From a virus: a stretch of DNA of 64,000 bases. The notes under the pieces were generated by a model. It made no database searches. It was not told the origin of the DNA and saw nothing but the letters and a program-made list of their open reading frames with translations. Both the position numbers and the translations under genes were made by a program. Of this stretch, positions 392 to 12,365 are shown one piece after another. The stretch lies in IMG/VR virus record IMGVR_UViG_3300036715_002570, positions 64,001-128,000 of that record. One strand, written 5' to 3'. Each line of letters opens with the position of its first letter. Position 1 is the stretch's first letter.

Positions 392-728
392 TACGATAAT
401 GGAATGTCTGCCTATCCATTAACTGTCTCGATCCCGTTTTGGCCGTACAATTTCAGGTTCAACAAAATGACCTGAGGTTCAGTAATGGCATTGATGTTGC
501 GGCTGATATGACGCATGTGATTGTCACTCAATTCCAACAGTTAGACCCAACACTGTCACGATTGCATATCATTGGTGCTATCAATGGTATGCGTGCTCGC
601 TTACGTTTGTCGCCAGAAGGGCGTCAAGCTGATCAAGTACGAAATTGAACATAATGGAAGTTCATACATAAGTATACAAGGCCTGGTTGAGTGGTGTTAA
701 CCAGGAATTTGAAACAAGGAGCACCAAC

Positions 729-1409
729 ATGAAGACAATTGTCGAAATCCACTCCGCTGAAGGCGGTGACGACAGCAAGTTGTTTGTTAAGGACCTAGCA
801 CAAGCATACGGGAAGATGTTCAGCCGTTTTGGCTGAAAGCACCATGTTGTGTTAGATACTTCGGGAGAGGTCCACATAGAAGTAAGTGGCACTGATCTAA
901 CGCAGCTTAACAATGAACCAGGAGGTCATCGCCTCCAGCGTATTCCACCAACTGAACGCAAGGGTCGCGTCCATTCCTCATCGGTAATGGTTGCCGTAAT
1001 CCGTGTTGATCAATATGCCCAACCTGACTATTCGAAGATTGATCCGTCGGACTTCAAGATTGAATGGTACTCGGGAACAGGTGCAGGTGGACAACATCGC
1101 AACAAACACCAAAACAGCATCCGCTTGACCCATGTTCCTACAGGAGCAATGGTCACATCTCAGTGTCGTAGTCGAGAGAATTCGTACGCTGAGGCAATGC
1201 AAGAATTGATCAAGCGTCTGCAATCGGACGCAAAGTACCGCAGCATTGTGGCACAGTCAATTGAACGCAAGAAGCAGATGGGCTCTGGTATGCGTGGCGA
1301 CAAGGTACGGACGTACCGGTTCCAAGATAACATTGCGACTGATCATCGCACAGAGAAAAAAGTTCCGCTGTCCAAAGTAATGGACGGTAATTTTGATTTG
1401 TTGTGGTAA
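729..1409 (+). CDS. Class I peptide chain release factor (RF1-like PxT, lacks N-terminal domain 1) with in-frame UGA at 834-836
   Basis: AAGGAG then ATG729; MKTIVEIHSAEGGDDSKLF matches the RF 'LEIRAGxGGDEAxLF' segment; same frame as ORF 849..1409 with HRLQRIPPTE, GGQ (GAGGQHRNK) and RTYRF motifs. Confidence 0.85.
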
Positions 1410-3034: not shown

Positions 3035-3215
3035 GTGTTTGATCTCCAAATAGGATATTTATGCTAACATTGTTTCTTGATACAGAGTTTTACCGACTTC
3101 GGAAGCCGAATGGAATGCAGCAGTACTACAACATTGACCCGCGCCAACACCATGCGCTCGTTGATGCAAAAGCAAACCACCATGGCTGGTGGCAAGGATA
3201 TCAGGCAGGACTACA

Positions 3216-4172
3216 ATGAATAACACGATTGACAAACTCCATGGCGGTTTATACGGCGCCTTAATTGGTGACGCCGTTGGTGTACCGTATGAGTTCAAGA
3301 CAACTCTACAGATCCCCCACCCCCCAACGATGGTTCCACCACCTAAGTTCAACCGATCGTATCTTGGCGTCCCTCCTGGCACGTGGTCTGATGACGGTGC
3401 GCTGACGCTATGTCTGATGGAATCGTTGTTGAAGGCCGACGACTGGCTGGATACCGACTGGGTGCACGCGTTCGGACACCGGATGTCAAGGTGGCGATAC
3501 GAAGGGTACATGACGCCAGACAACAAGAAGTTTGACATTGGAAACCAGACCTCGGAGGCAATCCGTCTCCTGGAGTTTGGCCTTGATCCACTCGAGCTGA
3601 CGTATACAGAATACGAAAACGGCAACGGCGGCTTGATGCGTGCACTTCCTGTTGTTCTGGCGTTGTGGAAGTCGGAAGATATCGACCTAATCTGCGCCGT
3701 CTCGGACATGCATCACATGGTGTCGCACGGCCATCCAATCTCGTTGATCTGCGGTCAAATCTACGTAATGACAGCGATCATGCTGCTGCGTGGCGATAAG
3801 TTTAACGACGCCTTCTGGGCTGCCGTTGACATTGTTGAAGCTCGGTGTGACGATACCGAATGGCAAGGGCATTTCGCTACTGTCCTTGCAGGGAAAGACG
3901 AAGAGCCTCGCGGCACGGGATACGTTGTTGACACGCTATGGTCGGCACGTTTTGCAGTGCAAAGTTCGCTGATGGGCGATAACACGTTCATGAATGCAAT
4001 CGAACGCGCCATCCTTCTCGGTAACGACACAGACACAACTGCATGCGTGGCAGGTGGATGGGCTGGTATCATCTACGGCTGGAAGGGCATTCCTCAAGAG
4101 TGGCGTGATGGGTTGCGCGGTAAAGACCTCGTTAAGCCAATGGCAGATCGACTGGTGGCACTAAATGACTGA
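3216..4172 (+). CDS. ADP-ribosylglycohydrolase (DraG/ARH family)
   Basis: GDAVGVPYEF, WSDDG, GNGGLMR and NDTDTTACVAG motifs. Confidence 0.92.
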   Translation: MNNTIDKLHGGLYGALIGDAVGVPYEFKTTLQIPHPPTMVPPPKFNRSYLGVPPGTWSDDGALTLCLMESLLKADDWLDTDWVHAFGHRMSRWRYEGYMTPDNKKFDIGNQTSEAIRLLEFGLDPLELTYTEYENGNGGLMRALPVVLALWKSEDIDLICAVSDMHHMVSHGHPISLICGQIYVMTAIMLLRGDKFNDAFWAAVDIVEARCDDTEWQGHFATVLAGKDEEPRGTGYVVDTLWSARFAVQSSLMGDNTFMNAIERAILLGNDTDTTACVAGGWAGIIYGWKGIPQEWRDGLRGKDLVKPMADRLVALND

Positions 4173-4563
4173 ATACGTTAAGCAGGTAATTGTCGTCCGC
4201 AAGGACCTTAAAATGCCGAAGGGCAAGATTGCAGCACATGCTGCCATGGCTCCTCTGCTGAAGATGATGGACAAAGACTTTGGTACCAGTGAAACGGAAG
4301 GTTGGATGCTTCGATTCAAGCACGGAAGCGCTCTCGACAGCTGGTTGAATGGGTCGTACACCAAGGTTTGTCTTGGTGTAGAAGACGAGGAGCAATTGCT
4401 TGCCCTGTTCGCAGCCGCAGAACAGGCAGGCTTGCCGTGTGCTTTGATTCGCGACAACGGCTTGACCGTCTTTAACGGTGTTCCGACGAACACCTGCATT
4501 GCGATTGGTCCTGACTACGAGAGCAAGATCAATTCGATCACGGGACACCTTCCTCTGCTGTAA
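4165..4563 (+). CDS. pth2: Peptidyl-tRNA hydrolase, Pth2 type
   Basis: KQVIVVRKDLKMPKGKIAAHAA, D-x-G-x-T, TCIAIGP, ITGHLPLL. Confidence 0.92.
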   Translation: MTEYVKQVIVVRKDLKMPKGKIAAHAAMAPLLKMMDKDFGTSETEGWMLRFKHGSALDSWLNGSYTKVCLGVEDEEQLLALFAAAEQAGLPCALIRDNGLTVFNGVPTNTCIAIGPDYESKINSITGHLPLL

Positions 4564-4613: not shown

Positions 4614-4703
4614 GCTTCCATAGTTTAGCGGTAAAACCCCCGGCTTATACCCGGTATAGCTCTAGATAAGGGCGCGTCGTAGGTTCGAATCCTACTGGAA
4701 GTA
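4614..4703 (+). tRNA. tRNA-Ile(UAU) with long extra arm
   Basis: Acceptor GCTTCCA/TGGAAGT + A73; D arm GTTT/AAAC; anticodon loop CT-TAT-AC; 23-nt variable region with GCTC/GGGC stem; T arm GTAGG-TTCGAAT-CCTAC; CCA not encoded. Confidence 0.8.
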
Positions 4704-4737
4704 CTTTTTGGAATTATGGGATACAATAGTCCCCGCA

Positions 4738-5800: not shown

Positions 5801-6156
5801 CGATGGTCGGCAACGACGGCCGGTTGAAGAGCGTTGCAGGTAAGAAGGTCGTCAAGATCGCTGTCAATTTGTCGGCGGCAACGTCGACACCGATGTCGAA
5901 GGGTGATGACTGGTACTCGATGGCTGGTTGGTCTCCAACGGAACATCGTTGGAGACCGGCAATCCGCGACAAGTCGTCTGTTGTCGATCAATTGTCTGGT
6001 CCGTACCGGGGTGGAATGACCCAGTAACTTGTTGTCGTAAGACACAAAACTACGTAATATGGGAGGCTGCTTAGCACAGCCTCCCCCTGCATTTGGGGAT
6101 AGGGTTAGTGTTAAATCGACCCAATAAGTACGACAACAATAACTAAAAGGTACTAT

Positions 6157-7296
6157 ATGACACTAATCACATACTTAACAAAAGCATACAGGAAAGCTGT
6201 AGGTTGGTTTGTTACTAAGCGCGACAACCGAATCTGGGAAGAACGGCTCGCTTCAAAGCTAAAGCTGTTCACTGCGAACGACCATGCATGGGTTACCCCC
6301 GTGTTGCAGAATGAGATTGCGTTTATTCGCAGCTCGTTCTCGAACTACAAGTTCGACTCATCACAGCAGGCGCTGCAGACAGATGAAGTGGCAACAATGG
6401 TGTTTAATGCCACTGTGTACGCATGCTTGGAACTAGTCCCTCTGAGAGGACTAGTTAGTATTCAACCATTGCAAGGTCCCGTCGGATTGGTATACCGGGC
6501 GGCGTACAAGTATCAAGATCCCGCAGTACAGGACAGCCAGTCGCTCCACCTTGAAGTGCTCAAGCACGCCGTTGAGGCAAAGACTCACAAGCTGGCAGCA
6601 AGGTTTAATGTTGAGGCAGCACAAGACTTATTCGCGATCTACGGGATTGACATCGCAGACGGGATTGCACGAGCCCTTGGTGCTGAAGTTGCGTACGAGT
6701 TGATTGCAGAGGTCCTCTGTGATTTGAACAAGATCGCAACCCACCGTCAGACAGTATCAGGCCTGCCGCACGATGACAATGCGATCATGATCAACGCAGT
6801 TGCGAATACAATTGCATCAACTACCCGTCGCGGCGCGGGCAACTTTATCGTCACATCTCCAAGGGGCGTCGCTCTACTGCAATCTGTATCGAAGAGTGGC
6901 TATGTCAAAACACCGGACTCTGAGCAGACGCACACCTATGCGCTGAGGCAAGTCGGTACTCTCAACGGCCAAATGCGTGTGTACGTGTCAATGGTTGACA
7001 TGAACGATAGTTCACCAAACATTGAATACCTGATCGGATACAAGGGTCCTAGCGACGTTGATGCGGGATACGTCTTTAGCCCGTACAATCTAGTGGTATA
7101 TAGTGGCGCCACGATTGATCCGAATACATACACCCCAATGATCAACCTCATGACTCGGTACGGTAAGACGGGTATCCAGTGTGATCCAACGACATCGAGT
7201 GAATCTGCGGATTACTACGGAGTGGTCACGGTTGAGGATGTATCGTACGCTGTCCCTGTTCCTGCGGTTGACTTACCCGCATGGGTTAGAAGATAG
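6157..7296 (+). CDS. T4 gp23/gp24-like major capsid protein paralogue
   Basis: VSIQPLQGPVGLVY, AAQDL.A.YGID, TRRGAGNFIVTSP, GYKG, AGYVFSPY, MTRYG. Confidence 0.8.
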   Translation: MTLITYLTKAYRKAVGWFVTKRDNRIWEERLASKLKLFTANDHAWVTPVLQNEIAFIRSSFSNYKFDSSQQALQTDEVATMVFNATVYACLELVPLRGLVSIQPLQGPVGLVYRAAYKYQDPAVQDSQSLHLEVLKHAVEAKTHKLAARFNVEAAQDLFAIYGIDIADGIARALGAEVAYELIAEVLCDLNKIATHRQTVSGLPHDDNAIMINAVANTIASTTRRGAGNFIVTSPRGVALLQSVSKSGYVKTPDSEQTHTYALRQVGTLNGQMRVYVSMVDMNDSSPNIEYLIGYKGPSDVDAGYVFSPYNLVVYSGATIDPNTYTPMINLMTRYGKTGIQCDPTTSSESADYYGVVTVEDVSYAVPVPAVDLPAWVRR

Positions 7297-11997: not shown

Positions 11998-12365
11998 CGC
12001 AGGACGCCCCCGTCGATCCGAGCACGTTCCGTCCCCGCTTGACCCTGATGGCTACTCGCTTGCCTACAATCCTGGCGGAGTGCGAAGACCATGCGGAGAA
12101 GTGCAAGGCGAACCAGCGTGACATGGCGCTCAAGCTCGCCGTGCTGGTTGCCGCTGTCGACAGTGCAGGGACGATTTCTGACAACACCCTTGATTCGGCA
12201 ATCTACAATCGCCGTCAACTGCTCCAGCAGGGGTGTATGCAGTCCAAACTGATCGTCCAGCAACTGGAAGCGAATATGCAGGCGATCATCGACCTGCGTA
12301 CCGCCGTCGATCAAATGCTGAACATCACCCTTCCGCAGTTCGAGGCGGCCCGAACCCGCAGTTGA
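11994..12365 (+). CDS. TelA-like C-terminal part / partner
   Basis: ATGA overlap with the preceding ORF; RRQLLQQ..N..I..ITLPQF resembles the TelA C-terminal region. Confidence 0.5.
   Translation: MTQDAPVDPSTFRPRLTLMATRLPTILAECEDHAEKCKANQRDMALKLAVLVAAVDSAGTISDNTLDSAIYNRRQLLQQGCMQSKLIVQQLEANMQAIIDLRTAVDQMLNITLPQFEAARTRS

Follow-up and report, generated by a model that had tools for sequence, protein, structure and literature searches.

A window of 64,000 nucleotides of viral DNA carries, at positions 729-1409, a gene for a release factor (RF) of the RF1 type that lacks domain 1 and whose frame is interrupted at codon 36 by UGA. The stop is kept at the position of a conserved tryptophan and, judging from the sequences compared, the complete protein would be obtainable solely via readthrough of UGA36. 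Two signs of programmed readthrough, a conserved in-frame stop and purifying selection on the downstream frame, are present, and we consider it very probable that this UGA is a programmed readthrough gate maintained by selection. The best explanation overall, towards which we lean with some confidence, is a single gene at 729-1409 encoding an RF1-type, domain-1-less factor, placed under UGA36 readthrough and sensing RF2 activity. The RF2-sensing logic of the gate, considered by itself, is a close call that falls slightly on the doubtful side.

Table 1. Features of the release factor gene, numbered from the first nucleotide of the window.
Feature	Position	Strand	Remarks
Shine-Dalgarno AAGGAG	716..721	+	7 nt ahead of ATG729; read directly
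First 35 codons, opened by ATG729	729..833	+	decoding-domain strand 1 and long helix, with the GG(D/E)(D/E) tip
In-frame TGA, codon 36 (putative gate)	834..836	+	at the conserved Trp position; context GGC TGA AAG
Spacer between stop and helix, 8 nt; +4 base A837	837..844	+	
RNA helix, 5' arm	845..854	+	pairs with 895-904
RNA helix, 3' arm	895..904	+	pairs with 845-854
Remaining 190 codons	837..1406	+	remainder of the decoding domain, GGQ domain, C-terminal domain
PPT	945-953	+	residues 73-75
GGQ	1086-1094	+	residues 120-122
Final stop TAA	1407..1409	+	closes the same frame

The gene holds one internal stop, and its read-through product comprises 226 residues (Table 1). A mechanical ORF list splits the gene into 687-836 and GTG849-1409. 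The initial annotation had described this restart of the ORF track at GTG849, a Shine-Dalgarno (SD) sequence with ATG729 opening 35 codons of RF domain 2, a TGA in the context UGA-A, and the continuation of the same frame through PPT and GGQ. All of these points hold: the opening is confirmed by reading the sequence and by Pfam and NCBIfam matches, A837 follows the stop, the frame stays open up to the final TAA, and the restart is found in the mechanical list.

Farther upstream, after a gene at 2-352, a GC-rich perfect palindrome at ~360-392 is followed by a T run and is likely an intrinsic terminator. The consensus scan overlooked this candidate, its loop being too short. A promoter-like TCGACA-17-GATAAT at 372-400 overlaps the palindrome.

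Pfam assigns residues 3-88 to PCRF (69.2 bits, cut-off 24) and residues 103-207 to RF-1 (72 bits, cut-off 35). The NCBIfam RF1 profile covers residues 3-224, spanning the stop, and its match begins at profile position 106 of 347. The homology thus crosses the stop, and the protein begins where domain 2 of RF1 begins. The N-terminal domain 1 (about 105 residues) is absent, just 2 residues preceding the profile match, and SD and ATG sit right at the start of domain 2 in all relatives. The NCBIfam scores are 185 bits for RF1, 108 for RF2 and 45 for PrfH. The RF1 equivalog cut-offs (TIGR00019/NF001859) are missed, with 184.7 and 181.9 bits versus 400 and 423, as is the PrfH cut-off (TIGR03072; 45.1 versus 166.65 bits). 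Based on its sequence, the gene product is predicted to be an RF1-derived paralogue, distinct from prfA itself.

The best sequence matches among solved structures are RF1 chains (E about 1e-36). Codon 36 falls opposite a Trp in both Thermotoga RF1 ('..GW..') and E. coli RF1 ('RRWRVE'), which agrees with the Trp-like position that had been proposed for the TGA. Residues P73-P74-T75 lie inside ..HRLQRIPPTERKGRVH.., aligned to ..HRVQRVPxTE..GRIH.. of RF1. This PxT motif is invariant across the family, and the peptidyl-hydrolysis motif GGQ (G120-G121-Q122) is invariant in 55 relatives. The decoding residues Q70, P73-P74-T75 and H82 are all RF1-like, and none in the alignment is RF2-like. With PxT rather than SPF, the gate codon UGA falls outside the expected specificity of the product.

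An AlphaFold model made from an alignment of 55 relatives (mean pLDDT 88.7) places a strand at residues 2-11 and a helix at 14-34 (pLDDT above 90), with another strand beginning at residue 37. Foldseek ranks ribosome-bound RF1 first (query TM-score 0.87), ahead of RF2, with closed crystal forms at about 0.54. Model and match together indicate that codons 1-35 supply a strand and a helix that are integral to the decoding domain. Judging by published structures of RF1 on the ribosome, it is presumably the tip of this helix that recognises the first base of a stop codon. A hypothetical product starting at GTG849 would, on this model, miss that tip. The profiles, the decoding residues and the fold match all support the RF1-type factor without domain 1 of the initial annotation. 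Domain 1 of RF1 is the contact for RF3 and L11. It is not needed for codon recognition and release, but it is required for RF3 (PMC1586002); the phage factor is thus expected to be active yet beyond recycling by RF3.

The stop is conserved among relatives from three sources. A scan of viral contigs yielded 252 relatives. The best 80 were retained; they are 55-77% identical, and many of them lie on contigs of 200-520 kb. TGA occupies the aligned codon in 80/80 of these, each with exactly one internal stop and an ATG start with SD; an SD-like purine run lies ahead of the ATG in nearly all. Their final stop is TAA in 79 cases, TAG in one and TGA in none. A metagenome scan with the family alignment found more than 561 relatives; 80 were kept, and all 76 that span codon 36 have TGA. 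In a prokaryote scan of one genome per species, seven copies span the codon (44-59% identity). Six of them, from alphaproteobacterial isolates (Thalassospira, Jiella and Gemmobacter) and metagenome-assembled genomes (MAGs), carry TGA; the exception, L085 from a Hahella MAG, has TGG. Among the cultured bacteria with a TGA-bearing copy are Thalassospira xianhensis MCCC 1A02616 and Gemmobacter caeni DSM 21823, besides the Jiella isolate. All five bacterial carrier genomes that were searched whole also possess ordinary prfA and prfB. The gene is rare in bacteria: a copy was found in one of 401 alphaproteobacterial species representatives, that one being the query's own centre genome. The cultured-phage collection gave no useful near or distant DNA match, and its protein matches reached at most 37%. 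Altogether, the stop is invariant over about 150 distinct relatives, with identities down to 44%. The question of TGA versus TGG in homologues, raised by the initial annotation, is thus answered in favour of TGA.

An artefact or a decaying gene (sequencing error, fresh nonsense mutation, pseudogene, a code with TGA as Trp, or selenocysteine) has a negligible chance of being the explanation. Database entries 222-226 aa long that have Trp as residue 36 initially resembled intact TGG versions. Those that could be traced via an exact match to fetched loci (P0031, P0039, P0049, P0064, P0078 and P0088) are, in six of six cases, calls on short contigs in which the TGA of a TGA-bearing locus was translated as Trp, and the other database entries of the family are truncated calls beginning after the stop. 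Sequencing error had to be checked according to the initial annotation; the contigs from four public runs, which sampled microbial-mat and sediment metagenomes and include one from a separate sample and study, show zero differences at 834-836 and no TGG. No RNA run is listed among the public runs that contain the stretch. The conservation of the stop and the purifying selection on both of its flanks (see below) speak against decay.

A changed genetic code was also rejected. The window belongs to a single virus contig of 150,677 bp with 52% G+C and 45 tRNA genes. The nearest complete relatives measure 343-524 kb and have terminal repeats, so that this contig is probably a fragment. TGA is its commonest stop, ending 82 of 169 long ORFs, and reading TGA as Trp (code 4) adds a median of only 14.5 codons in-frame. 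A tRNA with a UCA anticodon is found in 0/45 of the tRNAs of this 150-kb contig, itself probably a fragment. The genome uses the standard genetic code. Selenocysteine was discarded likewise: there is no tRNA-Sec in the contig, the aligned residue is Trp and not Cys, and the UCA tRNAs of relatives are ordinary cloverleaves of 77 nt.

Selection was analysed on 78 distinct coding sequences with pairwise protein identities of 50-100% (median 66%), in which synonymous sites are near saturation (pS about 0.76). The dN/dS ratio is 0.10-0.13 for the upstream 35 codons and 0.11-0.13 for the downstream part; the purifying selection that had been anticipated for 729-833 is thus present in the relatives. 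The third base is invariant in just 3 of 222 codon columns, TGA36, TGG113 and TGG226, so that the conservation of the stop greatly exceeds what chance would give. A single A-to-G change would create an uninterrupted gene for the same protein, and it is never seen in the 78 sequences, which argues that the stop itself is under selection.

Translation restarting at GTG849 was considered and rejected as a conserved route around the stop. In 78 relatives, the first in-frame start lies anywhere from 4 to 148 codons downstream, with an SD in 7/78, and no restart codon after the stop is conserved. The conserved stop and the lack of such a codon support the initial proposal that the full-length protein needs UGA readthrough.

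The nucleotides around the stop are also constrained. Among the 78 relatives, 57 have A at +4, 16 have G, 5 have C and none has T, and the codon preceding TGA encodes Gly (GGC in 58/78). A constraint on the amino acids may be the simple source of both the +4 A and the Gly codon. Synonymous variation, normalised per pair, is lowest at codons 35-43 (0.55 of expectation). Downstream, an RNA helix was spotted by eye and tested afterwards on a 75-sequence alignment. Its arms, columns 27-36 with 77 and 84-92, are 79.8% paired, with 50 cells changed on both sides; this pairing was reached by 0/500 shuffles, and slid controls were at most 54% paired. In 70 further distinct sequences from outside the discovery set, 77% was paired, versus 43% or less for slid positions. 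Covariation thus backs the helix in two separate sets of sequences. The copy in the window forms ten pairs and begins 8 nt past the stop. With a spacer of about 8 nt, an RNA structure reaches the mRNA entrance as the stop occupies the A site, a known geometry of recoding stimulators. In this position, the helix may stimulate readthrough. The window's own fold around the helix has a z-score of -1.33, which is not significant alone, RNAalifold found no consensus structure in the codon alignment, and base-pair probabilities averaged across sequences are weak.

Two other structures were examined and dropped. A local hairpin between alignment columns 25-33 and 40-49 reaches 80% pairing in the family and is impossible in the window. 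A hairpin at 819-837 that would bury the UGA forms in the window; in the family, it is 39.6% paired, no better than shuffles.

A different trigger for the gate would be a tRNA of the phage itself, either a UCA opal suppressor or a special tRNA-Trp(CCA), which would make the stop a timer and not a sensor of RF2. The five complete relatives G001-G005 (behind L001, L006, L013, L024 and L035) appear to use the standard code, encode 44-61 tRNAs with at least one suppressor tRNA each, and have TGA in the RF gene in 5/5 cases. Two of them, G002 (two copies) and G005, encode UCA tRNAs, which would be able to open the gate without any involvement of RF2. The contig's own tRNA-Trp(CCA), at 12190-12262 of the contig and outside the window, is mismatched at A30-C40 in the anticodon stem, has a weak D stem of 2-3 pairs and is a candidate UGA-reading tRNA; in the tRNA-Trp of G003, the top pair of the anticodon stem is unpaired. 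In E. coli, tRNA-Trp(CCA) variants with an open top anticodon-stem pair boost UGA readthrough (PMC13092985). However, the suppressors of G001 (two copies), G003 and G004 are CUA alone, and these phages keep TGA, so that the stop and the suppressor anticodon do not co-vary and the gate is not matched to a phage tRNA. The odd features of the contig's own tRNA-Trp are not conserved among relatives either: tRNA-Trp is absent from G001 and canonical in G002 and G004. In addition, no UCA tRNA was found in the 150-kb contig, although this is probably a fragment, and strong opal suppression would cause misreading of the stop that the phage uses most. We regard such a timer as unlikely. Permuted tmRNAs were also identified in G001, G002 and G004.

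The genes near the RF gene encode an ADP-ribosylglycohydrolase (3189-4172), Pth2 (4165-4563), a tRNA (4614-4704), an HNH endonuclease and a gp23-type major capsid protein (6157-7296). The synteny with Pth2 is weak, as only 6 related loci have a Pth2 gene within 3 kb of their RF gene. The tRNA directly behind Pth2 is 91 nt long and has a long variable arm, a UAU anticodon and a four-pair anticodon stem. A search with the Pth2 of the window found no stop-interrupted Pth2 beside the suppressor tRNAs of the relatives. In-frame coding potential continues past a stop at two other places of the contig, 147030-147912 (TGA) and 5903-6218 with the next 361 codons (TAG). These could be gated genes or neighbours that share a frame, since the extension analysis used to find other genes with in-frame TGA or TAG is confounded by neighbour genes in the same frame.

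Other relatives reveal different gates in the same family. In L085 (3001-3664), the Hahella MAG copy with TGG at codon 36, the first frame closes at CTT TAG C (codons 41-42) and the homology resumes in the +1 frame. The viral contigs L247 (476 kb) and L248 (296 kb) have CTT TAG C at the same codon, again with a +1 continuation, at 33% identity. The two lineages, L085 versus L247/L248, share about a third of their residues, and these CUU-UAG-C relatives keep the same PPT motif. No clear SD-like element was seen upstream of CTT TAG C. A scan with one narrow pattern, CUU-UGA-C behind the GGEDSKLF motif, gave no match. Domain-1-less RF1-like genes with PPTE and early in-frame TGA codons, putative stops, also occur in two huge phages: L244 (LR756504.1, 636 kb) has a TGA at ~codon 43 and L245 (LR756501.1, 735 kb) has TGAs at ~codons 38 and 51, their short factors being 34-36% identical. 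A faecal phage-like scaffold encodes a full-length RF1, with domain 1 and TGG. The CUU-UAG-C sites, the early UGAs elsewhere and UGA36 indicate that the family keeps a stop-dependent gate near the start of the gene, and the +1 frameshift of the rare relatives points to a gate that senses termination.

This diversity bears on two further explanations. The UGA might be a fixed attenuator that senses nothing and simply limits a potentially harmful factor to a few per cent of initiations. Readthrough at a set ratio is the classic use of a leaky UGA, as in Qbeta A1, and a domain-1-less RF beyond the recycling by RF3 might be toxic at a high dose (PMC1586002). A weak ribosome-binding site would suffice for this purpose, yet the SD is strong; moreover, relatives swap the UGA for CUU-UAG-C frameshift sites, the known sensor design of prfB, and the stop has been invariant over a very long time. 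Fixed attenuation is, in our view, unlikely to be the function. Self-regulation, in which the factor would act at UGA despite its PxT motif, or on ribosomes paused there, as in prfB, seems quite improbable for the UGA form. In the PPT-bearing CUU-UAG-C relatives, the gate codon does fit an RF1-type specificity, suggesting self-regulation somewhere in the family. For the gene described here, all the visible decoding determinants are RF1-like and none is RF2-like, and the RF1 profile outscores that of RF2 (see above).

Sensing of RF2 is the simplest reading of the gate, given that all visible decoding residues resemble those of RF1 and that UGA closes 40-49% of the phage's genes. Trp is the residue inserted by near-cognate decoding of UGA in bacteria, as in Qbeta A1. 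According to the proposed mechanism, most ribosomes would terminate at UGA36 via host RF2 and release a functionless 35-residue fragment. A minority would insert Trp, most likely by near-cognate tRNA-Trp(CCA), and this insertion would be helped by the +4 A and by the RNA helix at the mRNA entrance, resulting in the complete factor. When RF2 is short, termination at UGA would be slow relative to decoding by tRNA-Trp, and more complete factor would be made. A regulatory loop can be imagined, in which the RF2 shortage raises the level of the RF1-type factor, this factor covers UAA (and UAG), RF2 is freed for UGA, and the gate closes again. A UAA/UAG-specific product would not directly repair a deficit in UGA termination, so that this feedback is indirect and conjectural.

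More tentatively, the short phage RFs could be sensors of termination capacity with interchangeable gates. CUU-UAG-C would then be the RF1/UAG counterpart of prfB, and the UGA form might represent the first cross-regulated RF, easing the UAA load on RF2 or rescuing stalled ribosomes. Should RF2 activity indeed set the gate, the phages would possess a natural sensor of termination capacity that is cross-wired, and the gate would also be a rare bacterial case of readthrough stimulated by RNA structure. There is a practical consequence as well: gene callers split or truncate the gene, or apply code 4, which creates artefactual database proteins and could mislead the inference of genetic codes in phages.

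The prfB frameshift is the textbook example of how recoding lets a gene sense its own product. In prfB, which encodes RF2, a +1 frameshift occurs at CUU UGA C with the help of an SD-like element and, as in the phage gene, completion of the protein hinges on the efficiency of termination at an early stop. The phage gene, in contrast, continues in the same frame at GGC TGA A, without CUU or an internal SD. Whereas the product of prfB reads its own gate codon, the phage factor, having PxT and not SPF, should not recognise UGA; it is, in addition, viral and devoid of domain 1. The CTT TAG C site of L085, L247 and L248 corresponds to the shift site of prfB with UAG replacing UGA. A 2016 review (PMC5009743) knew of no bacterial RF gene with same-frame readthrough of an early stop and of no RF1/UAG counterpart of prfB. 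A same-frame version was suggested at a time when RF genes had yet to be sequenced, and the review cites only a giant-virus factor. Such a probable readthrough gate, called unfound in 2016 (PMC5009743), is fixed in hundreds of large phages, in an RF1-type factor. Surveys of huge and jumbo phages name RF1, RF2, tmRNA and Pth2 and mention no gate (PMC7162821, PMC7824862), and our literature search found no published description of a UGA-gated short phage release factor.

Viral UGA readthrough offers another comparison. Qbeta A1, MuLV gag-pol and the alphavirus-type 3' structures (PMC3159437) share with the phage gene a leaky UGA, a probable Trp and a structure after ~8 nt. In those viruses, the protein is functional without readthrough, and a set proportion of it is extended at the C terminus. 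The upstream product of the phage RF is merely a 35-residue domain fragment, making readthrough all-or-nothing for function, and, unlike in the other viral cases, the gated product is itself a termination factor. The release factor of Mimivirus and Megavirus is also virus-encoded and requires recoding at stops, by readthrough and frameshift (PMC5009743). That factor is, however, of the eRF1 type and from viruses of amoebae, and its fold and decoding are unrelated to those of the bacterial-type RF1.

Among bacterial factors, PrfH (RF-H), the partner of RtcB, resembles the phage factor in lacking domain 1 and keeping GGQ (PMC1586002). The decoding residues of PrfH are altered and an internal stop is not known for its gene, whereas the phage factor keeps the RF1-type residues. 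Finally, the 'Jade' phages (Borges et al., 10.1101/2021.08.26.457843) also encode an RF1 and manipulate the decoding of UGA. In those phages, TGA encodes Trp across the late genes and the RF1 gene follows the standard code and is uninterrupted, while here TGA is the main stop of the genome and a single TGA lies within the RF gene.
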